IMG/VR virus record: IMGVR_UViG_3300013121_000032
Span: 57,236 to 121,235 of that record
DNA: 64,000 nucleotides
Reading direction: 5' to 3' (one strand)
DNA from: a virus
Lineage: Duplodnaviria; Caudoviricetes
Below, in pieces: positions 45,645-62,578 of the stretch. Made by a program: the position numbers and the translations under genes. The notes beneath the pieces are model-generated. The model made no database searches. It was not told the DNA's origin and saw nothing but the letters and a program-made list of their open reading frames with translations. Each line of letters starts with the position of its first letter. Positions within the stretch are counted from its first letter, which is position 1.

Positions 45645-46070
45645 ATGTCAGAAAAGACAGAAAATATGATGGAAACTCGTATTCAGCGCACTCCTAATGG
45701 AATTGCTTTGACTATTAAAAGCAAAGTTCTGGAAGATTGGATGAAAAACAATCGAATGGAAGGCTCTAATATGGAACAATCCTCTAATCCTGGCTGGAAT
45801 GGAATTAAAGGGTATAAATTGAAAGAAATTAAAGATTTTGATCTTTTCAACTATTGGGGTGGAGCATTAAATCAACCATCACCTAATTTGTCATTCTTCA
45901 GAGCAGAAGGTCTTGGAGAAGGTGTAACATTTAATCTTGAAGGAATTTATTCTAAACAAGTTCTTGATAAGTGGGTCCAAGATGCAAGAACCCATATGAT
46001 TGGTTTTTATAAGCGCTACATTAAAACCAAAGATATCACCTTAAGTGTAACCATTTCAGAGATTGAGTAA
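45645..46070 (+). CDS. Cassette 1, protein X (unknown family)
   Basis: PNLSFFRAEGLGEGVTF motif shared with 48854, 51001 and 61099; TAATG-coupled to the ligase. Confidence 0.8.
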   Translation: MSEKTENMMETRIQRTPNGIALTIKSKVLEDWMKNNRMEGSNMEQSSNPGWNGIKGYKLKEIKDFDLFNYWGGALNQPSPNLSFFRAEGLGEGVTFNLEGIYSKQVLDKWVQDARTHMIGFYKRYIKTKDITLSVTISEIE

Positions 46071-46741
46071 TGCCCAAATATATACATAAAATTGGAGTAG
46101 AGCTTGAAGGAGCTTGGCTATCCAGTAAAAATGTGGATAAAAGTTTTCATGGTGATGGATCCGTAAACATCCCTATTAATTATGATTCCAATGATAGGCC
46201 AGATCTTTTTGTTGGTGAAATTGCCTCAGATCCCATTTCTTATGAAAATGTAGAAAATTGGATTAGAGTAAATTATCCTGATAAAGTAAACCATACTTGT
46301 GGTTTTCATATTCATGTTTCATTAAAAGAAAATATGAATTATTTAAGATTAGCAACTGAAGAATTCAGTGCTTTCTTCTTTAATGCAATGACATCTTGGG
46401 GGGAATCCAATAAGCTCCATCCAGAAGATCAGTTCTGGTATAGGTTAAATGGATCTAATCATTATTGTAAAAAAGATTTTAAACCTGATGATCAGATCTA
46501 TGCAAAAACAAAAGGCGATAGCAGGTATACACAGCTTAACTTTTGCTATACCCTTCATGGAACATTGGAATGTAGGCTTTTGCCAATGTTTGGTGATGTA
46601 AACTTGACAATTAGTGCCTTTAAGGCGTATATTGATTGTATTGAAAAATTCCTAGAAGAAGCTCCAAATAATTTAACAGTTATAGAAGCCGCTATTTCAA
46701 TGGAAGATGCTAATAAGGAGGAAGAAGAATGTGTCTATTAA
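46070..46741 (+). CDS. Cassette 1, amidoligase (COOH-NH2 ligase, GS/GCS fold)
   Basis: IGVELEG, DGSV, GEIAS, CGFHIHVS, YC, RYTQLN, TLECR. Confidence 0.85.
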   Translation: MPKYIHKIGVELEGAWLSSKNVDKSFHGDGSVNIPINYDSNDRPDLFVGEIASDPISYENVENWIRVNYPDKVNHTCGFHIHVSLKENMNYLRLATEEFSAFFFNAMTSWGESNKLHPEDQFWYRLNGSNHYCKKDFKPDDQIYAKTKGDSRYTQLNFCYTLHGTLECRLLPMFGDVNLTISAFKAYIDCIEKFLEEAPNNLTVIEAAISMEDANKEEEECVY

Positions 46742-47352
46742 TTGTTGCTGAAACTGAGTTTCCTAGTGAAGCAGTTTTAAAAATAGGTGAGCAGCAAAAT
46801 GGAGATGGTGGCGGCCTTGCTTGGGTTAAAGACGGTCTTGTCCACTATAAAAAGAATGTTAAAGCAGCAGAAATGATGGAATTTGCTAAACTTGAGCCTC
46901 CGTTTATTTTCCACTTTAGAAAAGCTTCATCTGGACCTAAAAAGCCAGAATTGTGTCACCCTTTTCCAATTTCTAGAAAGAGTGAGCTTCACTTAGAGGG
47001 AACTACTAATATTGGTGTTCTTGCCCATAATGGACACTTTCCCCAATATTCAGGATTGTTGCTAAACTCTTTGTCTCCTAGAACCCCATTGCCTGAAGGT
47101 GATTGGTCAGACACTAGAGCTATGGCTTATCTTACAGCCTTGTATGGTGATTCATTTTTGAATCTTACAGATGAGAAGATAGCAATCTTGACTCCAACTG
47201 GAGTTACAGTATATGCTCCTCATAGATGGGTTACACATGGAGCTTTAAAACTTTCTAATGATCCATTTACAGGCTCAGCTACAAAATTTCCCGGAATTGA
47301 CCAAACCCGTTGGACAGATTCTAGCAAATTTGATCATGGATATTGTGATTAA
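46729..47352 (+). CDS. Cassette 1, class II (Ntn) glutamine amidotransferase
   Basis: MC N-terminus, NGDGGG, HFR, CHPFP, HNG, WSDTR. Confidence 0.88.
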   Translation: MCLLIVAETEFPSEAVLKIGEQQNGDGGGLAWVKDGLVHYKKNVKAAEMMEFAKLEPPFIFHFRKASSGPKKPELCHPFPISRKSELHLEGTTNIGVLAHNGHFPQYSGLLLNSLSPRTPLPEGDWSDTRAMAYLTALYGDSFLNLTDEKIAILTPTGVTVYAPHRWVTHGALKLSNDPFTGSATKFPGIDQTRWTDSSKFDHGYCD

Positions 47353-47357
47353 GAACT

Positions 47358-48852
47358 ATGTCAAAAAAAATTGATTTTGCTGTAGGAATGATGCATTTAA
47401 AGCCATCCCTAACAGGAACAAAAGGAGTTAAAGAAGCGGAATTTCAATATCTTATCTTTGATAGGGTATATAATCCAAATCTTTTGCCAACATTAATTAA
47501 ATATAAAGGAAAGTTCTTTAAACGCCATTCATATGATGGTAAAAAGAAAGAATGCACATTTAATGAAATAACTAAAGATGTTTATTGGAAAGACTTAGCA
47601 TCAAGTGAGTTTTGGGATCATGTCTGAAAATGCTAAACATATTACACCTGCTGACATTGAAAAGTTTTTTGAATTAGTTGTGCGTCCAGTAGATAGATGG
47701 AAAGCTCCTGATGATTGGATATTTTTTAATGGATTGAGGACAGAGATAAAAAATCTCGTTTATATGGGATTAAATCTAGTTCATGAGAATTGTATTCAAG
47801 TAGAAAAAGAAGCAATTAAAAGAAGTAATATTATTAGCAATGGAAAAAATAATTGTATTATTCCTTCTTGTAGGTTAGATTATCCACATAATTCCTATGC
47901 TCATCAGAATCAGACATCTAAAAGAACTTATGACTCAGGTAAGAGCATAGAAAAGCTTCCGGTTTTAACATCACCAGAGGGCTATCATAGAAAAGCACCA
48001 CTTTTCAAACCTATTGAACACTGTAGATCAGTAGATACTTTTAGAGGGGAGAGTACAATCTAATGCTTCCATATGGTCCTAGTTGGTTTCCAAACAAGCA
48101 TGTTGAGGACGGTACTTGTTATTATAATGTTCCAACTAATCAGGAATTTAGTGGACGTTGTGTTGCTTTAGAAATGAGAGATAAGCGATTTATGTTCACT
48201 AAAGACTATTGGAAAGCAGCACATATTAAACTTAAAAATATTACGGGTAATCATGCTTGGTTTCTGGGTCCAGCTACTCAATATTTTAAAAATAATAAAT
48301 CTTTAGGTGTATTTTCTATAGGAAATGCTGAAAGAGCTAGACCAATGACATCAGAAATTTACAATAATGGGTATTGGGAATCTAAAAGACAGTCTAATGT
48401 TGTAAACTATACTGTTTACAAAAGTACAGCCGAATATTTAAAAGAAATTTATAAAATCCAAAATAAACAACTAGTACAGTATCTAACTAAGAGGAATAAA
48501 ACCAATGAAAATGAGACAACCAAATCTGAAACGTCAACTAGTACAAGCAGCACAACTCCAACCAGTGGGAGGCTCCTTCCGATTGTTAGACCAAAGAGCT
48601 AATTTTCTAGGAATTAAGCTTCCATCTAAAGAAATGCCAACAGGTAAACGAAGTAGACGTAGCTTGCCTCCCAGAACCCAAATTAAAACATGGGAAGCAC
48701 TTAAGGACCGTGCTTTGGAAAATCTTTTGAAAGAGTTGACAAAATTGCGTGAAACTGTTAAGGTTCAAGAGAAAGAACAAAAAACTGCTACACGTTGTCC
48801 AAACAACTCCAGAATTTTAATGTTTCCTCCAGCAATGGGAAAAGTAAATTAA
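47358..48852 (+). other. Four hypothetical genes between cassettes 1 and 2
   Basis: ORFs at 47358, 47605, 48063 and 48505, closely packed or overlapping. Confidence 0.55.
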
Positions 48853-48853
48853 A

Positions 48854-49471
48854 ATGTCCTTTGATATATACACCAAACTTGAAAATGAGCTTTTTGAGAA
48901 GTTAAATAATAATATGCCTCCAAAGATTGAAATTCCAAAAACATCTAAAACACTCCTTAAAATGGAAGCCGATTGGAATGAGCATGGAGTAATAATTCAC
49001 TACCAATCTGAGGCTATTGAAAGATGGATGCAGCATGTTTCAAAACGTGGTGGAACTTTATCAAGCAATAATGTAGGATGGAAAGGTAAACAAGGATATC
49101 AAATTCCACAAGGGTTTGATATGGGAGATCCTAAAATATCTTATTTCAGGAGTTGGGGTGGTCCTTTGTTTTTTAATGGAAACAACACCCCTAACCTTTC
49201 CCCTTTATGTGCAGTTGGACTAAGTAAGGGAGTATCATTTGAATTCCAAGGACTCTATACTCCTGACACAGTTCAAAAATATATTAAAGAGACAAAAGCA
49301 ATTGTATTAGACTTACTTAAAGACTATTTTCGTAAATTTGATGTTGCTGATAATGTCTCAATGCAAGAAGCTTTTGAAGTTAAATTTAAACCAAAACTTT
49401 CTGAGGCAGAGAAAGAAGCACGTAGAATGCAAAGAAAGGCAGAAAGGTTAGCAGCTAAAAAGGTATACTAA
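48854..49471 (+). CDS. Cassette 2, protein X (with N- and C-terminal extensions)
   Basis: SEAIERWM, WGGPL, PNLSPLCAVGLSKGVSFEFQGLY. Confidence 0.8.
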   Translation: MSFDIYTKLENELFEKLNNNMPPKIEIPKTSKTLLKMEADWNEHGVIIHYQSEAIERWMQHVSKRGGTLSSNNVGWKGKQGYQIPQGFDMGDPKISYFRSWGGPLFFNGNNTPNLSPLCAVGLSKGVSFEFQGLYTPDTVQKYIKETKAIVLDLLKDYFRKFDVADNVSMQEAFEVKFKPKLSEAEKEARRMQRKAERLAAKKVY

Positions 49472-50088
49472 TGGCTAAATATATTAATTTGGTTGGCGTT
49501 GAATTAGAAGGTGGATGGATTGTTCCTCCTGTTGGTATATATCATGATGGTTCTGTATCTGGAGTAGCTGGACATAAAGGAGAATTTTCTACTAAACCTC
49601 CTGTAGAACCAGATAAGATTTCTCATTGGATAGCTCAGCATTATCCAGATTATTCTAATCAATCATGTGGATTGCACTGCCATATTTCATTAAAAAAAGT
49701 TAATGATTATATGCGCCTTATGACTCCTGAATTCCAAAAACATTTTTTACAAAAAATGGAGAAGTGGGGTAAAGATACTAAAATTCCTTCTGAACATCCA
49801 TTTTGGTCTAGATTAAAAGGGCAAAATCAATATTGTAAAAGAGATTTTATTCCTAATGATCAAGTTACTGGAGCTGGTAGCAGATATACGCAATTAAATT
49901 TTGCTTATTATAAATATAAAACCTTGGAATGTAGAATGCTTCCTATGTTTCCAGAAGGATCAAAATATGCAATTTCAGCTATTCAAACTTATTTAGATTG
50001 TGTAGAAGAATTCCTGGACAAATCTCCAAATTTGTCGTTTAATAAGATAAAAGAAGAAATTCCAATTGATGAGGATTTAGTAATCTAA
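49471..50088 (+). CDS. Cassette 2, amidoligase
   Basis: VGVELEG, HDGSV, GEFST, CGLHCHIS, YC, RYTQLN, TLECR. Confidence 0.85.
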   Translation: MAKYINLVGVELEGGWIVPPVGIYHDGSVSGVAGHKGEFSTKPPVEPDKISHWIAQHYPDYSNQSCGLHCHISLKKVNDYMRLMTPEFQKHFLQKMEKWGKDTKIPSEHPFWSRLKGQNQYCKRDFIPNDQVTGAGSRYTQLNFAYYKYKTLECRMLPMFPEGSKYAISAIQTYLDCVEEFLDKSPNLSFNKIKEEIPIDEDLVI

Positions 50089-50735
50089 TGTGTCTATTAA
50101 TTGTTGCTGAAGATAAGTTCCCTGCTTATGAGATTCTGAAAGCAGGTGAGAGCCAAAATCCAGATGGAAATGGCATTGCATATAGAAAGGCTGGAAAAGT
50201 TGAATTCCATAAAGGGATTACTTTGGATAGGATTATAGAGCTTGGTGCTAATAGTGCTCCCCCTTGGTTAATTCATTTTAGAGTTGCAACAGTAGGTCCA
50301 GCTTGTCCTGAACTTTGCCATCCTTTTCCTGTATCATTAAAAGCTCCACTTAATACTACTGGTCAAGTTAATGCAGTAGTAGCTCAAAATGGTAACTGGT
50401 TTAATTGGAGAGAAGGCCTATTCAGTGCTTCTAAATCAATGATTGGTGATAACTCACTAATTCCTAAAGATAATCTTTGGTCTGATAGTAGAGCATTAGC
50501 TTTTGTAACAGCAGTTCACGGTAAAAACTTTTTAAAAACCTTGCCTAGTGCTGGAAAACTTGCATATATGACTAATAATCTGCTTGAACGTTTTGGTTCA
50601 GGTTGGGTGGACAAAGGTGATGGAGTTTTTTGTTCCTATGATCCAGTGTATCGTTTTCAATGGTTTAATCGAGATTGGAGTGATGAAGATCTTCAAGTCT
50701 GGTGTAAAGCTAATGGATATGAAGTAGATTGGTAA
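50088..50735 (+). CDS. Cassette 2, class II glutamine amidotransferase
   Basis: MCLLIVA, NPDGNG, HFR, CHPFP, QNG, WSDSR. Confidence 0.88.
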   Translation: MCLLIVAEDKFPAYEILKAGESQNPDGNGIAYRKAGKVEFHKGITLDRIIELGANSAPPWLIHFRVATVGPACPELCHPFPVSLKAPLNTTGQVNAVVAQNGNWFNWREGLFSASKSMIGDNSLIPKDNLWSDSRALAFVTAVHGKNFLKTLPSAGKLAYMTNNLLERFGSGWVDKGDGVFCSYDPVYRFQWFNRDWSDEDLQVWCKANGYEVDW

Positions 50736-50772
50736 AAGGATCATTGAGGATCTTACGTAAATAATAATGTCT
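50735..50772. promoter_or_regulatory. Bipartite motif, copy 1: AAAGGATCAT-N12-GTAAATAATAATGTCT
   Basis: Both boxes recur identically at 60652-60689 and 60695-60732 with the same 12-nt spacer length. Confidence 0.75.
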
Positions 50773-50831
50773 AGTGTGAAACTTTTCTAACCTAGTGCTA
50801 ACTGAGCTAGTGGCCTGCCCAGTGCAAAGAT

Positions 50832-50859
50832 TAAACGGATCTCATTTGGGGTCCGTTTA
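50832..50859. other. Stem-loop in the intergenic region (terminator or processing hairpin)
   Basis: TAAACGGATCTC...GGGGTCCGTTTA inverted repeat with G-U pairs. Confidence 0.55.
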
Positions 50860-51000
50860 GCGCTAGCTGACATAAACTTATGCTAGCTCTGCTAGGAGTA
50901 AAATCGAAAGAATTTTAGGTTTTCTTCAGGTTTAACTAGCAAATAGTGTGCTAGTATTCAACCATTGAAACCCGCCAACCACCTTTAGGAGAAAAGTCTA

Positions 51001-51465
51001 ATGGCCAGTAAGAAAGTTATAGATGAGTTGACTATAGAAAGGATTCCTAATGGTATTAAGATCTTTTGTAGATCAGAAGCTATTGAGGACTTCATGAAAT
51101 CAATATCTATTAAGAATGCTGATGGAACACCAAAAACTGCATTTATTCCTAATTTTGCACAATCTCCAGCTACGAAGTTCTATCAATTAGATATTGCTGC
51201 TGATGTAGATAAAGCAATATTTGTTAGTCCTGCTGATCGAGGACTGCTTCTTAAGATAGGAACAGTATATGCTCCAAACTTGAATATTTTTAGAGCAGAG
51301 GGATTAGCTCAAGGTATTACCTTTATCTACGAGGGTCTATATCCCCAATCTCAGATTAAATTATGGCAAGAATTGACAATAGAAACTATTAAAAAATTAG
51401 CTAAGAAGTATTTTACAAATTTCAGGATTTCTCTTTCTTTGTCCTATCATGAATTGGAGGGTTAA
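51001..51465 (+). CDS. Cassette 3, protein X
   Basis: IERIPNGI, SEAIEDFM, PNLNIFRAEGLAQGITFIYEGLY; AGGAG RBS. Confidence 0.8.
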   Translation: MASKKVIDELTIERIPNGIKIFCRSEAIEDFMKSISIKNADGTPKTAFIPNFAQSPATKFYQLDIAADVDKAIFVSPADRGLLLKIGTVYAPNLNIFRAEGLAQGITFIYEGLYPQSQIKLWQELTIETIKKLAKKYFTNFRISLSLSYHELEG

Positions 51466-51468
51466 AAA

Positions 51469-52113
51469 ATGGCATGGCAATTTATCAATAGAGTAGGTCT
51501 TGAAATGGAAGGTAATTGGAAGTTAGATGCGCTTCCAGCCGGATTAGGTACTGATCAATCAGTAAGGTGTCCTAGAGAATATCAACGTACCCATAAGCCT
51601 GGTGAGATCAGATCTCCCCTTTTGGATCAGAAAGATATTGAGCCTTGGATTATGTCTAATTTTCCGCATATTACCCATCCTTCATGTGGATTTCATGTCC
51701 ATGTATCTTTTAAGGATGTTAAACATTATCTCCTTTTAATGGAAAAAGGTTTTTGGAGATACTATCGATCAGAAATGAGGAAATTCGGACATAGGATGAA
51801 ATGTAATGATTCAGATAGATTGTTATTTTTTGATCGCTATGATGGAACTAATCAGTTTTGTAAACCTAATTTTATGCCAGATGAGCAAATAGCGAATGTA
51901 AATAGCAATCGTTATACACAATTGAATTTCAATGCTTGGCATAGACATAAAACTCTTGAAAACAGACTATTTCCAATGTTCTCAGATCCCAAAATCGCTA
52001 CCTTAGCTGTATTAAATTATTTAAATATAATTGAGGGTTACTTGACAAAAACAACACCAATAGAAGATAAGATGACTACATCATTAGAGGTTGATCTAGA
52101 TGAAACGGATTAA
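51469..52113 (+). CDS. Cassette 3, amidoligase
   Basis: VGLEMEG, DQSV, GEIRS, CGFHVHVS, FC, RYTQLN, TLENR. Confidence 0.85.
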   Translation: MAWQFINRVGLEMEGNWKLDALPAGLGTDQSVRCPREYQRTHKPGEIRSPLLDQKDIEPWIMSNFPHITHPSCGFHVHVSFKDVKHYLLLMEKGFWRYYRSEMRKFGHRMKCNDSDRLLFFDRYDGTNQFCKPNFMPDEQIANVNSNRYTQLNFNAWHRHKTLENRLFPMFSDPKIATLAVLNYLNIIEGYLTKTTPIEDKMTTSLEVDLDETD

Positions 52114-52321
52114 AACTGATTCAAATACAATTCCTGAATTAGGATATGATGGAGATACAAAGCTATTAGAGATTAAGCTACATACAGGAGCTATTTATCA
52201 TTATAGAGAAGTTGATCAAGTAGATATAGATAAGCTTGCAATCTTCGATTCTGTAGGTAAGTGGTTTAATCAAACTATCAGAACAAAATATGAAGGAATC
52301 CTTATAGGATCTGAACCTTAA
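52100..52321 (+). CDS. KTSC-domain protein
   Basis: IPELGYD..LEIKL.TG.IYHY..V..SVGKWFNQTIR..Y. Confidence 0.8.
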   Translation: MKRIKTDSNTIPELGYDGDTKLLEIKLHTGAIYHYREVDQVDIDKLAIFDSVGKWFNQTIRTKYEGILIGSEP

Positions 52322-52375
52322 ACCAAATTGCAGTATTATAATGGCATCGCAACCAACCAAAGAGGGCTTTAGAAT

Positions 52376-53155
52376 ATGTGTTTGTTAATCGTTGCACCTG
52401 AACAATTTCCAGATGATGAAGTACTGGCTAAGGGAGAGGAAAAATTTGGATGGGATGGAATTGGTGTAGCCTGGCGTCAAAATGGTCTTGTCCATTGGCG
52501 TAAGGGTATTACACTTGAACAACTAAAAGCAATAGGTAAGGATACTAAAGGTCCATGGCTTATTCACTTTAGACAGTCTACAGTAGGAAAAGCTATGCCT
52601 GAACTTTGTCATCCTTTTCCAGTTAACAAAGACGTATCCTTGAAATTGGAAGGTAAGGCTATGAGTGTTTTGGCTCATAACGGTCACTGGAATAATTGGG
52701 CTAATCGTCTTTTGAATTCCTTAGGAAAACATGAACTTCCTGATGGTCCTTGGTCAGACACTAGAGCTATGGCTTTCTTAACTGCAATTCATGGACGTGA
52801 GTATATGAAATTGGTGGATCATGCCGAAACTGGGGATTTTGGTAGAATTGCAATCCTCTCTAACACTGGACCAGTGTTTATGATGGGTAGGAATTGGTCT
52901 AAATATAAAGATCTCCATGTAAGTGTTGATATTGGATGGTACATGAAGAAAAAATCATCTAATAAAACCACTAGTCCTTGGAAAGATAACTTGAAAGAAG
53001 GTTTGGCTAATTGGTCTATTACTGCTGGTAAGCAAAGAGCACTTCAAACTAATCCAGTACATGCACAATCAGCATTTAGCGCTGAAATACAATCCGAGCA
53101 TCATATACAAGTAGCTGAATGTCTGGAAGATATGGGAATTATTGAGGAGGATTAA
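52376..53155 (+). CDS. Cassette 3, class II glutamine amidotransferase
   Basis: MCLLIVA, DGIG, HFR, CHPFP, HNG, WSDTR. Confidence 0.88.
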   Translation: MCLLIVAPEQFPDDEVLAKGEEKFGWDGIGVAWRQNGLVHWRKGITLEQLKAIGKDTKGPWLIHFRQSTVGKAMPELCHPFPVNKDVSLKLEGKAMSVLAHNGHWNNWANRLLNSLGKHELPDGPWSDTRAMAFLTAIHGREYMKLVDHAETGDFGRIAILSNTGPVFMMGRNWSKYKDLHVSVDIGWYMKKKSSNKTTSPWKDNLKEGLANWSITAGKQRALQTNPVHAQSAFSAEIQSEHHIQVAECLEDMGIIEED

Positions 53156-53563
53156 AAAAATGTCATTAGTTAAAACTGAACCAAAGCTTGGGAAAGGAAC
53201 AGTAATTAGACCGTGTTCATGTAAGTCAAAATTTCAAGATGAGGTATATGGAAAAGGTCTTAGGGTTAAAAATTGCTGCCCTAAATCTGATAAAAACTCA
53301 TCTTCTGAACCAAGATGTACAGTTTGTGGAACACGTTAAATAAAACTAATCGAGCTGGGCATCTCGCTTAAAACTGCTATGAATTTTGATATTTCATGGG
53401 TACTTGTTTTTACTGGAAAGTCATATCTCATCATTAGAGCTAGCTTATTTGAGCAGCTAGTTAATCATCCTACCTTTTTTCGTAGTCCTCCTACTGGAGT
53501 AATTCGCTTTGCTCCTGGTGTATCATTTGCGCTTGTCCAAAAGCTTGCTAGAGGGGTAATGGA

Positions 53564-54214
53564 ATGTTAGAGGCAATTACTTTTAACAAGGATTGGCGGA
53601 ATTGGAAGAAAGGTGAAACTGTTGAATTTAGACCTGATATTAATCTCTTGGTTGGTGATCAAGGATCAGGAAAATCTTCTCTAATTCAGGCAATTTGTGA
53701 ATTCAGAGAAAAGCAATCTGAATATGCTCGTAGAATAAAGTTTTATATTTCAGATATTGAAAGAAGTATTAAACAAAAATCTACTACTAAACCAAAAATG
53801 GATGAAACCATTTTAACAATCAAAACAACTGATGATAAAGGCATCAATATTGGAGTGTACGATTTTGAGAAAGATAATCTAAGGACATTAAGCTATTTTA
53901 AGGAAGGTTGTACTGGTGTTCAAATTGCTATGAAATTCATGTCTCATGGTCAGGCTAATATGAGTATGTTAGAAAAACTTCATCAAAGTGATATTGGACT
54001 CTATATCATGGATGAGCCTGATACAGCCCTCTCTATCAAAAGTATTTACAAATTGATAGATATCTTAAAGAAAACTCAAAATCAATTGATTTTGGCAGTA
54101 CATAATCCTATACTGATTTCATCAGTTAATGAGGTCTATAGTGTTGAGCATAGACAATGGATGAAATCAGAAAATTTTATTAAGGAGTGTGAAAAATGCT
54201 TAGACAAAAATTAG
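53564..54214 (+). CDS. Stand-alone ABC-type ATPase
   Basis: INLLVGDQGSGKS, signature MSHGQ, Walker B/D-loop IMDEPDTALS, H-switch AVHN. Confidence 0.85.
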   Translation: MLEAITFNKDWRNWKKGETVEFRPDINLLVGDQGSGKSSLIQAICEFREKQSEYARRIKFYISDIERSIKQKSTTKPKMDETILTIKTTDDKGINIGVYDFEKDNLRTLSYFKEGCTGVQIAMKFMSHGQANMSMLEKLHQSDIGLYIMDEPDTALSIKSIYKLIDILKKTQNQLILAVHNPILISSVNEVYSVEHRQWMKSENFIKECEKCLDKN

Positions 54215-54531
54215 CTGCATTTTTGATTAATGAAAGAGCTTCATTATCATACAAACACTATGCTGCACTTTCAGAAATGCTTGAAGTATCTGCCTCTCTT
54301 ATTTCTCAATCAGAAACAGCTAAAGCAAATTTGGTTGCCATGCGTAATCAAGCAATTCAACACTATAATTTAGGCGAAATTACAGGACTTTCATTAAATG
54401 AGTTGGCTTATAAAATGGTTAATACCCATCCAACAACTAATAAAATTCAATTTCTAAAAGATCTCCGAGTTTTAACTGATTGTGGATTAAAAGAAGCTAA
54501 AGATGCTATTGATGCTCAATTTGGAGTATGA
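54196..54531 (+). CDS. Protein with a ribosomal L7/L12 C-terminal-like motif
   Basis: NKIQFLKDLRVLTDCGLKEAKDAID. Confidence 0.7.
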   Translation: MLRQKLAAFLINERASLSYKHYAALSEMLEVSASLISQSETAKANLVAMRNQAIQHYNLGEITGLSLNELAYKMVNTHPTTNKIQFLKDLRVLTDCGLKEAKDAIDAQFGV

Positions 54532-54810
54532 GTAGACGAATGGCAGAGGTTTTATTTATGTCATGGAGAGAGCATATTAGAACCAAGAATAAACTCAATT
54601 TAATGTCTTTTCCGCAAGAAGATCTTAAATTGATCATAAGTATTTTGGAGGAAAAGGCTTTTATGCTTGATGATCAATGCACATGGCAAAAACAAAAAAT
54701 GAGAGATCAGATCCGCAAAATTTTAAATAAGCTCTATGATGGAGTGGAGGGACATTAAAAATGGTTAATATGGGCATTGATGATTATGGGATTAAAGTGA
54801 GGGCTGAGTA

Positions 54811-55470
54811 ATGGCATCTAGATTGCCAGTTGTGGCAGCTATTGGAGTTGAGCTAGAGGGTGGATATACAAATGCTCGACATGAAAAGCTTGTAATGTTA
54901 TCCCAAAAAATTCCTCATTTAAAAGTTGGAACTGACGGAAGTATTGAAGTTCCTGATAGGTTTGTAGATGCTGAAATTCGGCTAGGTCCATTAGCTCCTA
55001 ATATTTTGCTTTCAAAACTAAAAGATTATTATCCATCTATAGGTAATAAAAGTTGTGGACTGCATGTTCATATGTCTTTTATGGAGGAGGATTATTATAA
55101 CCTTTTAATGGATAAAAGGCTTTGGATAGATTACATCTATCCACGAATGAGAGAATTTGGTATTGATTGTGGAATTCCAAAAAATCATCCATTTTGGGCT
55201 AGATTAAATGGACGTAATCAATATTGTAAGGATCATTGGCAACCAGAAATAGCAAATAAAAATCTTAAGCTCTATGGGTATAACCAAGAATACTGGCTTA
55301 GAAATGCAGATCGCTATGCTAGGGTTAATTTTAGATCTACTTATGAGCATAAAACAGTTGAGTTTAGATTTCTTCCTTACTTTGAAAACCCTTCATTAGC
55401 TAAAGCAGCAATTAAGGAGCTAGTTGATATTGTAGAAAGCTTTATTAGAGAGAATAGAAAGAAAGCATAA
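54811..55470 (+). CDS. Orphan amidoligase (4th paralog)
   Basis: IGVELEG, DGSI, AEIR, CGLHVHMS, HPFWARLNG.NQYC, RYARVN, TVEFR. Confidence 0.85.
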   Translation: MASRLPVVAAIGVELEGGYTNARHEKLVMLSQKIPHLKVGTDGSIEVPDRFVDAEIRLGPLAPNILLSKLKDYYPSIGNKSCGLHVHMSFMEEDYYNLLMDKRLWIDYIYPRMREFGIDCGIPKNHPFWARLNGRNQYCKDHWQPEIANKNLKLYGYNQEYWLRNADRYARVNFRSTYEHKTVEFRFLPYFENPSLAKAAIKELVDIVESFIRENRKKA

Positions 55471-55507
55471 ACTTTACTTGCAATTCGGAAAACTTGAACT
55501 AGTATAA

Positions 55508-56125
55508 ATGCATCGACACCGGGAGGGGATGCAGATGATTACTCAAGAACAATTCCAACTGCAAGCACTTATTAGAGATGGAAAAATTCCAGCTAAGTCA
55601 ATTCAATTTGCTTCTGATATAGCCTCTAAATCGCTCACAAGCTATAAACAAAGAGAGTGGGTGACTAAGCTAGTTCGTCAGTATTCTCAAGAGAAACTAG
55701 ACCTTAATTTGTCTAATGTTGTGGAAATGATGGAAAATGCAAAACGCCATCTAAAGTATCCAAAAATCAATCTGCAATTCGCAGACGGGAAAACATTTAG
55801 GCTTAAAGCCTCATCTAAGCATACTGGAGTATATATTGATGGTGGATCATTCCAGTCTGAGTATTTTGAGTATTTTGGAAAAATTACACCAGAAGGAAAG
55901 GCCTATCTCCAACAATCTGAATATAAAGATGAATTGGAGTTAATCTTGAACGCATTCAGCCAAGATCTCACCAAAAGTGCTAGAGATTATGGGCTTCTAA
56001 CAGGAAATTGCTGCTTTTGCCTCTCACCTTTGAGTGATGAGAGATCTACAGAAATGGGCTATGGTCCTATATGTGCTGATCATTATAATCTGAACTGGGG
56101 AAATAAAATTAGAAGGAGTTCATAA
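55508..56125 (+). CDS. Phage protein with a C-terminal zinc-binding DUF6011-like motif
   Basis: CCFCLSPLSDERSTEMGYGPICA. Confidence 0.7.
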   Translation: MHRHREGMQMITQEQFQLQALIRDGKIPAKSIQFASDIASKSLTSYKQREWVTKLVRQYSQEKLDLNLSNVVEMMENAKRHLKYPKINLQFADGKTFRLKASSKHTGVYIDGGSFQSEYFEYFGKITPEGKAYLQQSEYKDELELILNAFSQDLTKSARDYGLLTGNCCFCLSPLSDERSTEMGYGPICADHYNLNWGNKIRRSS

Positions 56126-57751
56126 TTATGGCAAAGCTTCATTACAATGTCAGAGATTGTGGAGACGGTTCAGTTAGTGTTAGATTGGGTCTTTTATTAT
56201 TGTATTAACCCTAATAATACTTGCATCCTTCAAGATTCATGCAGATTAAGGGAGAGTTTTTAAATGAAATCTGAAGAAATAGATCGGCTTGAATGGCTTC
56301 AATCTAATAATTTTAAATTTAATTTCTATACAGAAAGACATCTTTTTACTGAAGAAAATAATCTTGTTAAGAAATTTCTCCAGGAATACCCACAATTAAA
56401 TCTTTATATTAACACTATTTGTAATGTTGAGCAGTCATACACTTTCCAAATACGTGGTAATGTTGGTATTAATGAATTTGAATTAATTCAAACAGCACTT
56501 ACAGAGATTGATTTTCTATATGAGTTGAGATTTAGAGGACGATCAACCAAATATAAAACTTCAAATGAGATAACTATTAAATTTCCATCATGTAGAGCTG
56601 AAATTGTTAAGTTCTATAAAGCATTAAAGTTTTTGGTTAACAATTTTGATGTAGAGTTTAGCAATTATGATGGTTCAGCAATCATAAATAAAAATACTTT
56701 AGAAGCAGAATACTTTGCCTGCGGGAGTTAAGAAAAAATGCTAATTGAGATGTTTACTGAATTAACTAAGCGATACCTTATGAAATATGGAATTTCTAGT
56801 CTGATCAATCGAATTTTGTCTATTATTAGGGAATATGATACCGAGCTAAGAACAGAGGCAGCAATTCTTGGGAAATTTGATGAATCAATTAATGAAAATT
56901 GTTTAACAATTTCTGAATTTGCTCAACAAGTAACCGCACTTGCTTCCCAAACTTATATGGACTAAGAAAAATGAAAGTTAAAGAATTAATTGAAACTCTT
57001 CAAGGTTTTGATCCAAATGCTATAGTAGTATATAAAGATGATGGTGGAGATGCTCATGATGTAGATCGAGTTCATGGATTCAAACCTAAACAAATTATAA
57101 TCGCTTCACAAGAACATCAACAAATAGCTATAGATAATGATTGCCATGAAGGAGATCCAGAACAATGGTGCATTGATCAATTTGAAAATGTTTTTGATAT
57201 CAATCGTAATAGTAGTATTAAAGGAAAAACTGTAGTAGTCTTTGCTCCACAATTTTAGAGAGGAAGTACAATGAATCTAAATCATCAATGTTGTCAATGT
57301 GGAAATAAAAATCCTCATACTAATATTTGCCCTAAACATGGCAAGCATTGTATGCATCAAATGTCTAATGTATGCCCTCCTACATGCCCTATAAACCCGT
57401 TTGGATTGTGTAAGGAGCATTCACCCATTGAAAAGATTCTAGAGAGCTTTGAAGTGCTTACAGCCTTGGGTTTGGAAAACTTTTCTGATGCTTTGGGAGG
57501 ATAATGAATTGATGGATAAATTAATTAATCTTGGTGGTGGATTACGTATTAAAGTTCCATTTGTTAATGAAGAAATATTTAAGTTAATGAATATTTGTGA
57601 TATTTGCCAAAATGTTGGTGAAATTTATTACAATCTTATTTGGAATGGAAAACAGGTAATTTGCCGAGGTTGTGATCGTAGAATTAAATGGAATTAATTA
57701 GACTTGATAGGCTAAATCCCATATAATTGCAATGTAATGGAGGGATGCTAA

Positions 57752-57952
57752 ATGTCATTTAGTACTATCAAGTCAATGAAATTGAGAGAAGTTATTAGCT
57801 TTCTAAAGGCTAATGGATTTGAGCAGGTGGAATCAGGAAAACACCTGAAATTTAAAAACTCTGTTAATCAACAGATTTTGATTCCTCATCATGGTAAGGA
57901 TGTTTCAAAACGGATCTTGAAGGATCTTTACTTGATATTGGGGGGAAAGTGA
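57752..57952 (+). CDS. HicA-family mRNA interferase-like protein
   Basis: EVISFLKANGFEQVESGKHLKFKN..ILIPHHGKDVSKRILKDL. Confidence 0.8.
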   Translation: MSFSTIKSMKLREVISFLKANGFEQVESGKHLKFKNSVNQQILIPHHGKDVSKRILKDLYLILGGK

Positions 57953-58042
57953 AAGAGTTTGATATTTGCCAAATTTGAGCTTCTTTCAAAATTGCTTGAC
58001 AATTAGAGACTTATACTCAATAAAGTTCAGCGAGGGGTTATC

Positions 58043-58294
58043 ATGGACAAGCTTATCAATAAAATAGGATCTAACCAATTGGAAATCCCAACTAGTGAGG
58101 GAAAATTTCTTTTTTCTTATGAAACTCCTGTAGCATATGAAACTGCTGATGGGAAGGTTTATGTTACTCAAAAGAAATATTCTTTGACTACTACAAAGCA
58201 TATTAATCGTTGGCTACAACAAAAGCAAAATCCGGTATATGTGCCGCAAGAGGCAATTACAGCCACTTTTACAGGCGCTGGTTTGTTTTCTTAA
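58043..58294 (+). CDS. Small phage protein
   Basis: FSYETPVA..YSLTTTKHINRWL, a pattern I recognise from phage early regions. Confidence 0.6.
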   Translation: MDKLINKIGSNQLEIPTSEGKFLFSYETPVAYETADGKVYVTQKKYSLTTTKHINRWLQQKQNPVYVPQEAITATFTGAGLFS

Positions 58295-58661
58295 GGAGAT
58301 CTGATGACAGTACAGGAGCTTATTCAAGAATTACAGCAGATTGCAGTATGATCATAGTCGCTTAGAAACTGGAGGAATTGGAGTGGAATTTTGGGAGAAA
58401 GGTTATTCTAAAGATAATCTAAACGATGACAAAGTTGTTATTACTGTTCCTTGGTGTTAAAATGAAAGCTTATAAAATTATTAGCTATGTGTTGGATTTT
58501 GAAAATCATGGTCCTGCTGAAATAGAAGTTGAGTTTCAAAATTCTAATTTACATATCAATATTACAGAAATTTCAGAGGCAGAAATAGGAGAATGGAGTG
58601 ATGATCATCCATTAAATTCCTCTAATGCAAAGCTTGATGACTATAAATGGAGTAGACTAAA

Positions 58662-59279
58662 ATGATTACATTTAATATATCTGACCAGCTTCTTGATATT
58701 AGAAGAAAAAATAATTGGACTCAGAAACATTTGGCTAGAATTCTGAAAACTGACATTAACAATATTTCAGCTATGGAAAGAGGAAAGCCAGTTTCAGAAC
58801 CGCTAATTGCTTACTATAATAAACAATCACTTGATATCAATTTGGAGAGTAGAAATCCCATGTCAACAACATCAACACTTTATGAGAATAAATTTAGAGC
58901 TACTACAGCTAAGCCTGTTCTTGATTTCTCTGTTATCTCTGCTGCATCTAAATATTTCTCACCTGAAAAGGGTGGCAGCTATAAGATTAAATCAATAGCT
59001 GATGATTTGACGCTAACAGGCGCTGAAATGATGAAATTGCTTAATACCAATGGAATAGGCACCTATTGTAGAGATCAATATTTTCCTCCTAAATCAGAAG
59101 AACATAGGAAGCTATTTGCTGAGCTTCTGAACATCCTAATGCTTTCTCAGGTGGTATTCAAGGGTAAGGATGCAGAAAGGCGTTTGTGGCTCCGTCTACC
59201 TAACGCAGATTTTGAATATCAAGCGCCAGTCCTTGCTAATCGGCAAAAAGTGATTGACTACCTTAAGAGGCTTGCTTAA
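58662..59279 (+). CDS. XRE HTH fused to an Xre/MbcA/ParS-like antitoxin C-terminal domain
   Basis: RRKNNWTQKHLARIL..ISAMERG; C-terminal VF..RLWLRLPNADFEYQAP..V..YL. Confidence 0.65.
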   Translation: MITFNISDQLLDIRRKNNWTQKHLARILKTDINNISAMERGKPVSEPLIAYYNKQSLDINLESRNPMSTTSTLYENKFRATTAKPVLDFSVISAASKYFSPEKGGSYKIKSIADDLTLTGAEMMKLLNTNGIGTYCRDQYFPPKSEEHRKLFAELLNILMLSQVVFKGKDAERRLWLRLPNADFEYQAPVLANRQKVIDYLKRLA

Positions 59280-60651
59280 AAAAATGTTAGATTTTACACA
59301 GATTAAAGACTCATTTAGGGCTATACTAAAAGGAGTATTAATTTGCATTATTTCCATACTGGTAATTGCTGGACCTATCAAACTAATACAAGACAGAACC
59401 AATTATGAGATAAAGTTCATAAAACATTGTGAAGATCTTTATGAACAGGGAAAGCTTAAACGATTTGCTATGGAAACTAGATTAAATGAGGATGGAGAAC
59501 TGCAAGCAATTTGGGGTTATTGTTTACCTGATGGAACACTAATTGATAATATCCATATTTATTTATCTGGAAAACCATGGCGAAAATACCAACCTTAAAA
59601 TTCTCTAATGTTACTTTGAGAAAGAAAGATAATAAAAAATGGGTAATTAGCCTATGTCCACTTGGTATTCTTGATTCTATAGTATTAAGCTTTCTTATGG
59701 TTTTAGAGGGATTAATTGGACTTCTATCATTTGGGCTTTTAAGATGGGAAATATCGACCTTTTATCGTTTTTGGAATAAAGAAGGAATTTATTAAGATAT
59801 GAATAATCTTTTTGCTAGTAAGCCGGGATTGCGTCTATTTGCTATTGGAATAGCCTCAGCATGTATTGCTATATTCTCTTTGATTATTTTTGCAATTCTT
59901 ATGTGTCAAATACTTATGAGTATTAATGCTACTCCATTTATGTGGGGATTGTTTTGGGTGTATATGTTTGGTGGTGTAGCTCTTCAAGTTCTTATATTAG
60001 CCATTAGAAGGGAATCTGAAGCACTTACTGATGAGGCTAAAGCGGCTATTAAAGCTCTTGATAAGAATTAGTTAATTTGCCTTATGAGTGTTTTTGCCTT
60101 ATGATTAAATGAGTGAGAGGGGCGATTTTTAAGTCGCTTAAACCACGAGGAAAAAGAGTATTAAAAATGTTGGACCTATTTTATAGCAGCAACCCAGACA
60201 AATAACACCCTATTAATTTTAGGGAAAATAGTCAAGGCCTGTACTCCTAACCCTCCCACATAATTTTAAGGTGAACAAAGATGAATAGAATTAGAGCATT
60301 AAAGGCAGCTATTGAATATGCACTCTATGATCAAGATGAAAATTTCTCTTACTTCTGTCATAAGGATTTAGGATTAAATTCTGAAGAAGTTTTGAAAGAA
60401 TTAAATACTTGGCTTTACAATATTGAAAAAATAAGGAAAAATATAAGGATCTACAATAAATGAATCTAACTGAAGAAAAAATTAAGGATTTGGAATACAA
60501 TTTCCAACAAGCAAAAAATCAATTAACTGGCAATAAGCCATCATCTGTATCTAAACAACAAGAGCAAAACTATGGAAGGGCATATCAGGCTTTATATAAA
60601 GCTGGACTACGCCCAAAACTCAAAAAGAAATATCATATAGGCTGCTAAATG

Positions 60652-60732
60652 AAAGGATCATTCTATATTAGACGTAAATAATAATGTCTGAGAAAAAGGA
60701 TCATGGGCTTTTCGTGGTAAATAATAATGTCT
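60652..60732. promoter_or_regulatory. Bipartite motif, copies 2 and 3 in tandem
   Basis: AAAGGATCAT-TCTATATTAGAC-GTAAATAATAATGTCT and AAAGGATCAT-GGGCTTTTCGTG-GTAAATAATAATGTCT. Confidence 0.8.
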
Positions 60733-60777
60733 GAAAATCAGCCTTAAATCCTCCTACCAGGGTTAGTAGAGAGCTAA

Positions 60778-60835
60778 TAGACCGGTCATCTAGCTTCTTG
60801 CTATTGTAGACCGGTCATCTAGCTTCTTGCTATTG
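60778..60835. repeat. Perfect 29-bp tandem repeat TAGACCGGTCATCTAGCTTCTTGCTATTG x2
   Basis: 60778-60806 and 60807-60835 are identical. Confidence 0.92.
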
Positions 60836-61098
60836 CCTGTAACATTAAGTGGATTTAATCTCAACTTAACATCTAGTGCAGCTAGCACATTAGAGCAAAT
60901 TAATGTGTAACGTTAACTCAATCTCATAATTTGTGTGGCAATTTCGTGACATGGGGAAATATTAAATGCAATTAGACCGGTCGGTCTAAAATCGCTTAAA
61001 AATTTTAATAATTGGTGCCATAAATTTGCCACATTTGGCGCATTAAGATCCAAATAACCCGCGCGGAATGTTCCGCCGGATTTGGAGAAAACAAAATT

Positions 61099-61782
61099 AT
61101 GCCAAACTTTGAAAGCGCCTATTTCCGTGCTGGTCGTGTTGGTTCGTCCATTACATGTCCGCCATGTGGTAACCAACAAGAATTAGATACCAATTCAGCT
61201 TACATATTTGCACCAATAGAACATATTTCACTTACCGAATTATTTGGATCTACTCATGCGGATGTCAGGCAGAATTGGACTTGTAATTCATGCTCACAAG
61301 AAGCATGGCGAGAGCCGGTGAATCGACAAGAAGAGGTAGTTGCGGATTGTCCAATTGCACCTATTTCAGGCGAGTTTATTGAATTCGGATACATCTATCA
61401 GCCACATACTGGAAAGGTTACTTTCAAGGCAAAATCCAAGCACTTAGAAGATCTTTTCAAGCGTCAAGGTAATAACAGAAAAGTAACCCATGGTGGCAAG
61501 GAATACTGGTACATTCCTGACTCACTCAATTCTGGAATTGTAGACTCTATAAACTTGGGTATTAATACCGCCGGTTACAAGAACTATGGCGACTGGAATT
61601 TAGGCCATATTTTGAGATTACCTGGCTTGTCAGAAGGAATTGAAGTGGAGTACCCATGCTCTAATCCAAACGAATTGGATCTACTTGGTCCATTGTTCGC
61701 CAAACTGATGAAAGCTATTTATTCCAAATATCTTAAAACCAAAGAATACAGAGTAACCATGTCAATTGTTGATTGCCAATAA
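61099..61782 (+). CDS. Cassette 5, protein X with an N-terminal zinc ribbon
   Basis: CPPC..CNSC; SKHLEDLF; WNLGHILRLPGLSEGIEVEY; YSKYLK; GGAG RBS. Confidence 0.72.
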   Translation: MPNFESAYFRAGRVGSSITCPPCGNQQELDTNSAYIFAPIEHISLTELFGSTHADVRQNWTCNSCSQEAWREPVNRQEEVVADCPIAPISGEFIEFGYIYQPHTGKVTFKAKSKHLEDLFKRQGNNRKVTHGGKEYWYIPDSLNSGIVDSINLGINTAGYKNYGDWNLGHILRLPGLSEGIEVEYPCSNPNELDLLGPLFAKLMKAIYSKYLKTKEYRVTMSIVDCQ

Positions 61783-62578
61783 GGGAGGTGAAACTATGAC
61801 AATTATTGGAAATTGCCAGAATTGCAACGGGAATCATCTGTTTGGTTCGCCTTGCCAAACTATTGCGCCACCAAATTTGGTGGCACCAGCAATTAGTGAT
61901 AAGCGCTGGAAAGTAATAGCTGCAATTGGTTTAGAATTGGAGGGAGGCTGGCAAAATCTTAGTCAATTGAAATCTGACTATCAGAATGTACCGTCAATTC
62001 AATTCCATGCTGATAGTTCAATTGATGCGGTATCTGGTTCAGCACATGAGATTTGTATTGGACCACTTAGTCCGAGTCGGGCGTTTGACATGATCTTAGA
62101 ACATGGGATCTATCCTGATTCTGTTAATCAATCATGTGGTCTACATATGCATGTATCTTTTCTCAAGAAGGCGCATTACACCTTAGTTTCAAGCCATAAG
62201 ACTGAATTGTGGAATGACTATTTGTTGCCGACATACAAAGCATTTGAAGCCTGGCTACCTCAAAGGGACTTCAAGCGCCTATGGCAGCGAATAGACCCCG
62301 CAAATCATGAAAGATGCTCTCCGAGTCGCCATGAGGGAATCAATGGCGCTTATTGTTGTCCAGTCCAATCAGCTAATCGGTATGCTGCTATAAATCTGGA
62401 AGCATTGTCAGAACACAAGACAATTGAATTACGTGCCACTGGTGCTATTGAATCGCCTGCTAATGCAGTCAAGGCGCTTGGCTTGTTATTAGATTCAATT
62501 CAGAAATTTCTGAATGAATACAAACCAGCGCCTAAGACCTACTCGATTTCCCTCTCTTGTGCTGAATTGGGGGTTTGA
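61766..62578 (+). CDS. Cassette 5, amidoligase (probable start 61796) with an N-terminal Cys/His motif
   Basis: IGLELEG, HADSSI, HEI, CGLHMHVS, YC, RYAAIN, TIELR; GGAGGTG RBS before MTIIG. Confidence 0.82.
   Translation: MLIANKGGETMTIIGNCQNCNGNHLFGSPCQTIAPPNLVAPAISDKRWKVIAAIGLELEGGWQNLSQLKSDYQNVPSIQFHADSSIDAVSGSAHEICIGPLSPSRAFDMILEHGIYPDSVNQSCGLHMHVSFLKKAHYTLVSSHKTELWNDYLLPTYKAFEAWLPQRDFKRLWQRIDPANHERCSPSRHEGINGAYCCPVQSANRYAAINLEALSEHKTIELRATGAIESPANAVKALGLLLDSIQKFLNEYKPAPKTYSISLSCAELGV

Follow-up and report, generated by a model that had tools for sequence, protein, structure and literature searches.

What is the role of a small protein that is encoded, time after time, just ahead of an amidoligase? 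The question is raised by a stretch of 64,000 nucleotides (the window), which makes up the right-hand 64 kb of the 121,235-bp IMG/VR phage record IMGVR_UViG_3300013121_000032, rated complete by CheckV. An earlier note on this DNA had drawn attention to four open reading frames (ORFs), here called protein X, and had proposed that X either completes an unusually short ligase as one part of a split enzyme or serves as a swappable substrate adaptor. Our analysis shows that protein X constitutes a genuine and hitherto unnamed family of small proteins from phages, which recurs in a triad with a compact amidoligase and a class-II glutaminase. We propose, at a probability of about 0.4 and on the basis of sequence comparison, that X acts as a non-catalytic specificity subunit, the partner of a minimal carboxylate-amine ligase of the glutamine synthetase (GS) fold.

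Identification of the X family

The four copies of X are numbered 1, 2, 3 and 5 after their partner ligases 1-3 and 5; ligase 4 is an orphan. All lie on the plus strand, as does every gene of the window. Copy 1 (45645-46070; coordinates are window positions unless a locus is named), with 141 residues, represents the minimal form of the family. Copy 2 (48854-49471; 205 residues; hmmsearch E 8.7e-45) carries the X domain between an N-terminal extension of about 25 residues and a basic helical tail (residues ~173-205, nucleotides 49370-49468), and copy 3 (51001-51465), which the family profile also recognizes, has 154 residues. In BLASTP comparisons copy 1 matches copy 2 at E 6e-20 and copy 3 at E 2e-17, with 29% identity over nearly the full length. 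Copy 5 (61099-61782; 227 residues) joins an N-terminal CxxC...CxxC zinc ribbon (C20, C23, C62 and C65; nucleotides 61156-61293) to a divergent X domain (residues 90-223, nucleotides 61366-61767). Its pairwise similarity to the others is weak (E 0.005 over the C-terminal 24 residues) and its match to a three-sequence profile marginal; a profile of 62 X sequences aligns with residues 90-223 over 127 columns (hhalign probability 94.5%, E 7.8e-8), and copy 5 is also recovered by hmmsearch (E 1.7e-8) and by a whole-genome profile search (E 2.2e-8). In this last search the genome yielded four X genes and five compact ligases and no others, every one inside the window. The four ORFs are thus homologous, and the copy-specific additions that the earlier note had described are present: copy 2 ends in a basic tail, and copy 5 carries the paired CxxC motifs.

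Beyond this genome the family is large. We searched 1.84 billion representative proteins exhaustively with HMMER, using a profile built from three copies, and obtained at least 473 clusters (50% identity) at E<=1e-3, and 108 at E<=1e-10. Among the matches listed, X homologs are nearly all free-standing proteins of 135-175 residues; their sources are metagenomes, and the retrievable names read only 'hypothetical protein'. Across 174 members, conservation is strongest at R15 (83%), G19 (89%), S26 (91%), E30 (84%), Y57 (80%), N81 (91%), G89 (89%), G93 (97%) and a Tyr or Phe at position 125 (81%), with K25 retained in 69% and S26 replaced by Ala in 5%. The motifs previously aligned by eye correspond to the most conserved of these columns (S26, E30, N81, G89, G93 and position 125). 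No column holds an invariant carboxylate, Lys or Ser, the nearest being E30, S26 and K25, and among 150 homologs the C-terminus varies both in length and in its final residue.

None of the four window copies is matched by a model in Pfam-A, PHROGs v4, NCBIfam 20 or PADLOC 2, and no family of those annotation libraries is common to 62 X homologs. These resources have missed the family, which bears out the suspicion that it was unrecognized. X is likewise not mentioned in the literature that we found, in a search not extending to the 2009 study that defined these ligase families.

An AlphaFold2 (AF2) model of copy 1, built from the 62-sequence alignment, predicts a confident alpha+beta structure, with a predicted local distance difference test score (pLDDT) of 93.1 and a predicted template modeling score (pTM) of 0.82. 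Foldseek returned no match to this model at E<=1e-3 in the PDB and none in BFVD; the best VIA-align Z among 48,161 PDB chains was 4.2, to an unrelated protein, and the X sequence profile reached a best E of 0.9 against the PDB. X is therefore a candidate new fold in the sense that its predicted structure is unmatched with these tools, which does not amount to proof of a new fold. The ESM Atlas gave no usable feature match, and the low quality of its X model (pLDDT 0.46) deprives the structural neighbors of that model of meaning. Identities as a GS N-domain or as an acyl carrier protein-like, GatC-like or Tad-like protein were considered and rejected, as X bears no resemblance to any of them; a Foldseek row for Tad1 (TM 0.15) is noise.

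Conserved gene order places X in a triad

Comparison loci, labeled with L-numbers (for example, L007), were gathered mainly through the ligase, X alignments being too divergent for locus-search patterns, and all fetched loci were scanned with hidden Markov models (HMMs) made for X, the ligase and the third gene. The IMG/VR sample comprised 31 ligase loci; the metagenomic sample comprised 72 distinct ligase genes, 60 of them with room upstream.

In the window, the gaps between X and ligase are -1, -1, +3 and -17 nucleotides for copies 1, 2, 3 and 5, the stop codon of copies 1 and 2 overlapping the ligase ATG by 1 nucleotide, so that each copy abuts or overlaps a ligase start as had been claimed. 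The same arrangement prevails elsewhere. X directly abuts the ligase on its upstream side in 24 of the 31 IMG/VR loci and in 49 of the 60 metagenomic loci with room upstream; five further metagenomic loci carry X 0.4-1.1 kb upstream with an ORF inserted between, which brings those with X within 1.2 kb to 54 of 60. The median gap across 72 distinct X genes is 3 nucleotides, and 56 of these gaps are no longer than 30 nucleotides. Seen from X, the ligase is among the next two genes in all six informative look-ups (6/6), and every X-homolog contig with downstream DNA bears both the ligase and the third gene. The statement that X is 'always immediately upstream' of an amidoligase therefore stands for most loci and fails as a universal rule. 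We looked for both outcomes that the earlier note had named as counting against its proposal: the four proteins are similar at the profile level, and homologs usually do occur with a ligase.

The third gene encodes a class-II glutaminase-type protein, and the window holds three of them next to its four X genes and five compact ligases. Glutaminase 1 (46729-47352; 207 residues) starts MCLLIVAE and is identified by its N-terminal Cys and the family profile, while glutaminases 2 (50088-50735; 215 residues) and 3 (52376-53155; 259 residues) are identified by their start sequence and the HMM. All three begin MCLLIVA, and M1-C2 is almost invariant among 25 aligned members. The glutaminase profile matches the glutaminase domain of Bacillus subtilis PurF (1ao0, 1gph) at E 1.2e-5 and, more weakly, GFAT1 (E 0.002) and the free-standing class-II domains 1te5 (0.002) and 3mdn (0.015); E values of 0.2-0.5 to GlmS are not significant, and single-sequence Pfam matches fall below threshold. 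The HFR, HNG and SD motifs of the family align with HVR, HNG and SD of PurF at the Arg, Asn-Gly and Asp positions, which we take to be those of glutamine binding and the oxyanion hole in class-II amidotransferases.

A glutaminase follows the ligase in 55 of the 60 metagenomic loci with room downstream. The full triad is the commonest arrangement (39 of 72 ligases), and both partners are missing from only 5 of the 50 ligases with room on both sides. Some contigs carry several sets: three consecutive triads lie on the 45-kb contig of L007, two triads and two orphan ligases on the contig of L021 and L038, and in L014 the genes run X, glutaminase, ligase, glutaminase. Partial sets also occur. X and ligase are paired without a glutaminase at window copy 5 and in L076, from which it follows that the linkage of X is to the ligase rather than to the glutaminase; ligase and glutaminase are paired without X in L018, L084, L088 and L108. 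The ORFs in the place of X in L018, L023 and L035 are not X-like. In two of these loci (L023:2785-3948 and L035:2940-3926) a phiEco32-type ligase of family PF14395 (E 2.5e-10 and 1.1e-8) occupies that place and abuts the compact ligase, an arrangement that ties the triad to the classical phiEco32/LUZ24 cassette. The triad of ligase 3 is the only one in the window with an internal gene, a 73-residue KTSC-domain ORF (52100-52321; Pfam KTSC E 7.3e-13) between ligase and glutaminase; a 68-residue ORF between X and ligase in L007 is unrelated to it.

The compact ligase as a complete GS-fold core

The five compact ligases of the window are ligase 1 (46070-46741; 223 residues), ligase 2 (49471-50088; 205 residues), ligase 3 (51469-52113; 214 residues), the orphan ligase 4 (54811-55470; 219 residues), which lacks X upstream and a glutaminase downstream, and ligase 5 (61766-62578; 270 residues from a TTG start), which lacks a glutaminase downstream. 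Ligase 3 passes the cut-off of Pfam Amidoligase_2 (PF12224) with 23.0 bits against 22, and the others score 15-21.5 bits, below it; ligases 2, 4 and 5 are recognized by the ligase HMM. The AF2 model of ligase 1 (pLDDT 89, pTM 0.85) aligns over residues 1-200 with the YbdK-like protein 1tt4, glutamine synthetases, GshF, PafA, Dop and glutamate-cysteine ligases. Each of the 19 best VIA rows belongs to one of these families (GS, GCS, YbdK, PafA or Dop; Z 9.6-6.8), the alignments covering 147-180 residues of enzymes that are 350-700 residues long, and the next rows are unrelated; the same GS-fold families dominate the Foldseek list with weak E values. Thirteen columns are invariant in 34 homologs, among them two Glu of the first strand and the motifs C-G-x-H-x-H-x-S and T-x-E-x-R, and the candidate catalytic residues (E11, E13, E50, H80, H82, R152, E167 and R169) are consistent with ATP-dependent carboxylate-amine ligation. 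Given the confident GS-fold model and these invariant residues, we regard the ligase as a complete but minimal GS-fold core. A bare core of about 200 residues lacks the accessory regions that shape the substrate sites of its relatives.

The split-enzyme proposal, in which X supplies a structural piece missing from the short ligase much as the N-terminal domain of a neighboring subunit completes the active site of glutamine synthetase, fares poorly against this evidence, and we consider it very improbable. In its favor, no GS-fold enzyme among the structural neighbors of the ligase is as short. In addition, the last ~13 aligned columns of X (profile columns 142-153) show the hydrophobic-polar alternation of a beta strand and could add to a partner's sheet, although DSSP assigns no strand in the monomer model. 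However, the ligase model is compact and confident without X, and orphan ligases retain the candidate catalytic residues (window 54811, L021b and L038). Searches for natural X-ligase fusions among the best 150 of 473 X matches, which are all of 275 residues or fewer, among long proteins and in the 72 + 31 ligase loci found none, and in long ligase ORFs the catalytic domain begins at residue 13-30. Neither Foldseek nor VIA shows a GS, GCS or PafA chain matching the X model, and X resembles none of the accessory domains of the GS family. X also evolves far faster than the ligase, and a PF14395 ligase can stand in its place, as in L023 and L035.

The size argument behind that proposal, which set ligases of 205-270 residues against one of 453 residues in the same window, does not survive scrutiny. 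The Pfam Amidoligase_2 model itself spans 245 positions, and the comparator (8278-9639, plus strand) is a COOH-NH2 ligase of the phiEco32-type family PF14395 (E 6.4e-12) whose alignment to the compact ligases goes no further than a G-x-H-x-H motif, so the comparison of lengths is not like-for-like. It contains no X-like region, its N-terminal half included.

Ligases 4 and 5 are sisters in the ligase tree (98/94), and the X and ligase trees are poorly resolved as to one-to-one orthology of triads between phages. Ligase 5 has a Cys-rich N-terminal extension of its own (C-x2-C ... H ... C; 61766-61860, plus strand) beside the zinc-ribbon copy of X; its TTG start is uncertain, with an ATG 30 nucleotides further downstream. 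Orphan compact ligases appear again on another phage contig, of 150 kb (L021b and L038).

A proposed model for X as a specificity subunit

Within triads, X diverges faster than both of its partners. Across 60 distinct triads, X sequences share a median pairwise identity of 19.5%, against medians of 33.2% among the ligases and 33.3% among the glutaminases, and X identity lies below ligase identity in 98% of pairs. X is also the component on which variable accretions are seen: zinc ribbons in copy 5 and several homologs, the basic helix of copy 2, beta-rich or helical N-terminal extensions in other homologs, and in homolog P0051 an N-terminal extension with a sub-threshold match to Ribosomal_L12 (E 0.027). 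Fast evolution, accretions confined to X and a few fixed central residues are together what one would expect if X were a non-catalytic subunit that has one conserved docking surface and a variable side facing the target. The same pattern fits a covalent substrate less well, and we therefore rank the specificity subunit first and a substrate or carrier second, with the other readings trailing. Several paralogous triads within one genome, seen again in L007 and, beside two orphan ligases, on the L021/L038 contig, were likewise counted in favor of the specificity subunit. The swappable-adaptor idea of the earlier note is our best guess, and it is compatible with all of the results described here.

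A further accretion was observed on a high-GC phage contig, where the X domain forms residues 426-592, at the end of a Cys-rich 620-residue ORF (L020:2146-4008) with several CxxC pairs, Pro-rich linkers, no Pfam match and an uncertain start codon.

We infer the following sequence of events. X and the ligase would be produced together from translationally coupled genes and would form a complex. The conserved central surface of X (R15, G19, K25-S26, E30, Y57 and the N81-L-S-F-L-R-x-x-G-L-x-x-G-V motif) would dock on the ligase, and the fast-evolving remainder, together with the variable end domains, would choose or present the ligase target; the zinc ribbon, the basic helix and the SH3-like and bL12-like extensions are candidate target-facing domains. 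The glutaminase would feed ammonia to a carboxylate activated by the ligase and so yield a carboxamide, following the logic of asparagine synthetase or GatCAB; alternatively, it may remove a gamma-glutamyl group. Each paralogous triad in one phage would then handle a different target.

Several considerations weigh against this model. Co-inheritance of adjacent genes is by itself enough to explain correlated divergence, and orphan ligases show that the ligase can do without an X encoded in cis. The strongly conserved Gly/Asn-rich motif might just as well serve as a binding site for a small molecule or as a loop for modification, and a fast-evolving, accreting small protein also resembles a substrate or decoy.

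A bolder form of the model, in our view rather unlikely, holds that X is an interchangeable targeting subunit of new fold, through which a minimal GS-fold ligase and a glutaminase become an enzyme that can be programmed to amidate or gamma-glutamylate macromolecules. If so, the targets would be, for example, host or phage proteins or nucleic acids, the 3-5 diverged triads of a large phage would each modify a different one during infection, and the triads would constitute a modular, exclusively viral family of 'writers' acting post-translationally or post-synthetically.

Alternative roles for X

The closest competitor to the specificity-subunit model, a possibility that we take seriously and nonetheless doubt, is that X is the covalent substrate or carrier of the ligase, in the manner of LysW/LysX, Pup/PafA or S6/RimK. 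A carboxylate on X (E30 or a Glu near the C-terminus) would be activated and then amidated or extended, with the glutaminase either providing ammonia or trimming the product. It is common for ligases of the GS and ATP-grasp folds to be encoded beside their protein substrates, and PafA, the ligase of Pup, is among the structural neighbors of ligase 1 (Z 7.9). A Glu lies 2-4 residues from the end in 48% of X sequences and in 67% of those aligned there, and LysW has a zinc ribbon, as does copy 5. However, X offers no invariant acceptor residue: its tail varies in length, only about one-fifth of 150 homologs end in E, D or Q, and copy 2 has 33 residues beyond the conserved Glu. X is moreover a folded domain of 140 residues whose strongest conservation falls in the central Gly/Asn motif and not at the terminus. 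A Pup-like tag was rejected as such, the C-terminal residue of X not being enriched for E, D or Q and an invariant terminal Glu or Gln being absent. X might instead regulate a harmful ligase as an inhibitor, chaperone or antitoxin-like partner, or be a small enzyme or ligand-binder that delivers a small-molecule substrate. Its upstream, overlapping gene position recalls antitoxin-toxin pairs, and R15, S26, E30, Y57 and N81 could form a site with the Gly-rich loop. We consider this family of roles unlikely, given that X resembled no enzyme and no ligand-binding fold in the comparisons with the PDB and BFVD and that several intact paralogous triads per phage would be unusual for toxin-antitoxin systems.

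Slightly less probable still is a GatC-like scaffold that joins ligase and glutaminase for ammonia channeling and has no part in specificity. The order of small protein, activating enzyme and glutaminase recalls gatCAB, and the triad, with 39 of 72 ligases in full sets and 5 of 50 lacking both partners, is by far the commonest arrangement. Yet the X-ligase pairs that lack a glutaminase and the ligase-glutaminase pairs that lack X both speak against a bridge between the two, and scaffolds rarely gain zinc ribbons or target-binding accretions and rarely outpace both of their partners in evolution. A reading in which the system serves DNA hypermodification was rejected, the genome having neither a thymidylate-synthase-like gene nor a TGT/DpdA-like gene.

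Relationship to known amide-forming systems

The phiEco32/LUZ24-type phage amidoligase cassette was reportedly described by Iyer, Abhiman, Burroughs and Aravind in 2009, and to our knowledge an amidoligase with a glutamine amidotransferase has been annotated in many phages since then with no substrate ever identified. This cassette type is described in PMC3890496 and PMC10580990, and the ligase-glutaminase pairing of phages is known from comparative genomics and uncharacterized (PMC3890496, PMC10580990, PMC11706807). Proposed roles include cell-wall modification, superinfection exclusion and nitrogen metabolism (PMC10580990, PMC11706807, PMC10945688). X is a new accessory family within this known but unsolved kind of phage system.

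The triad has in common with the classical cassette that a phage-borne GS-fold ligase of Amidoligase_2 type is immediately followed by a class-II glutamine amidotransferase. The compact ligases show a distant relationship to LUZ24 gp18 (hhalign 87%, E 3.6e-6), and in L023 and L035 a PF14395 ligase lies just upstream of the compact ligase, as LUZ24 gp16 lies near gp18. The differences are also clear. The ligases here have ~205-270 residues as against 385-391 in the phiEco32/LUZ24 type, and the glutaminase is a bare domain of ~200 residues as against ~490-510; the cassette here, unlike the classical one, is repeated 3-5 times per genome. The classical cassette has a co-located PF14395 ligase, whereas the one in this genome lies 37 kb away. 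RimK-type ATP-grasp and GGACT/GGCT genes, which belong to the classical cassette, were sought in this genome and none was found, the positive controls of both searches having matched. LUZ24 gp17, upstream of that phage's amidoligase, is not X-like, and X has no detectable counterpart there.

YbdK/GCS2, GS and PafA/Dop share the ligase fold (Z 9.6 for both 1tt4 and human GS, 7.9 for PafA and 7.8 for Dop) but differ in having only 10-16% identity to the compact ligase and in being enzymes of 350-700 residues with accessory domains. We know of none among them that needs a separately encoded partner of 140 residues. GatCAB and MurT/GatD are alike by analogy only, each combining an ATP-dependent activating subunit with a separate glutaminase, and GatCAB also having a small third subunit; none of the three components shares a fold with its counterpart, and no similarity of X to GatC was detected in sequence or fold. 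LysW and Pup resemble X as small proteins encoded beside an amide-forming ligase, LysW having a zinc ribbon and Pup being bound by a GS-fold ligase. Their attachment point is an essentially invariant C-terminal Glu or Gln. X differs from both in being larger, in its predicted stable fold and in having no such invariant residue.

The triad is the smallest version of this kind of system, with ligase and glutaminase each reduced to the bare core or domain and a single further protein beside them, and it is multiplied within single genomes. Being both minimal and multiplied, it offers a tractable three-protein set for learning what these enzymes do. If X is a specificity subunit, whatever it binds would name the target directly.

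Genomic context and distribution

Searches of 50,697 cultured or deposited phage records gave no megablast match of the region and no tblastn match of X or ligase 1, and the glutaminase found weak partial tblastn matches only. The triad is therefore so far confined to uncultured viruses. Ligase patterns run across 185,579 prokaryotic species genomes identified one locus (L048, JAHYJJ010000001.1). It lies on a 45.8-kb contig of coverage 368 that was binned with a Methanosarcinaceae metagenome-assembled genome and carries an intact X-ligase-glutaminase triad; this contig is probably viral.

The window has a GC content of ~33%. Its other products include a DNA polymerase A, a Ro60 homolog, RecA, a sigma-70 factor and an SNF2 helicase. 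A class-II (B12-type) ribonucleotide reductase of 1402 residues (10026-14234, plus strand) is split by an intein and LAGLIDADG homing-endonuclease domains. Around the orphan ligase 4, a DUF6011 protein (55508-56125, plus strand; E 8.9e-12) follows directly. Two genes upstream of the ligase start at 54811 sits a 111-residue ORF (54196-54531, plus strand) whose C-terminus matches the C-terminal domain of ribosomal protein L7/L12 (E 2.2e-6; 28.3 bits, above the Pfam cut-off), and upstream of that bL12-like ORF lies an SMC_N/AAA_21-type ATPase of 216 residues (53564-54214, plus strand).

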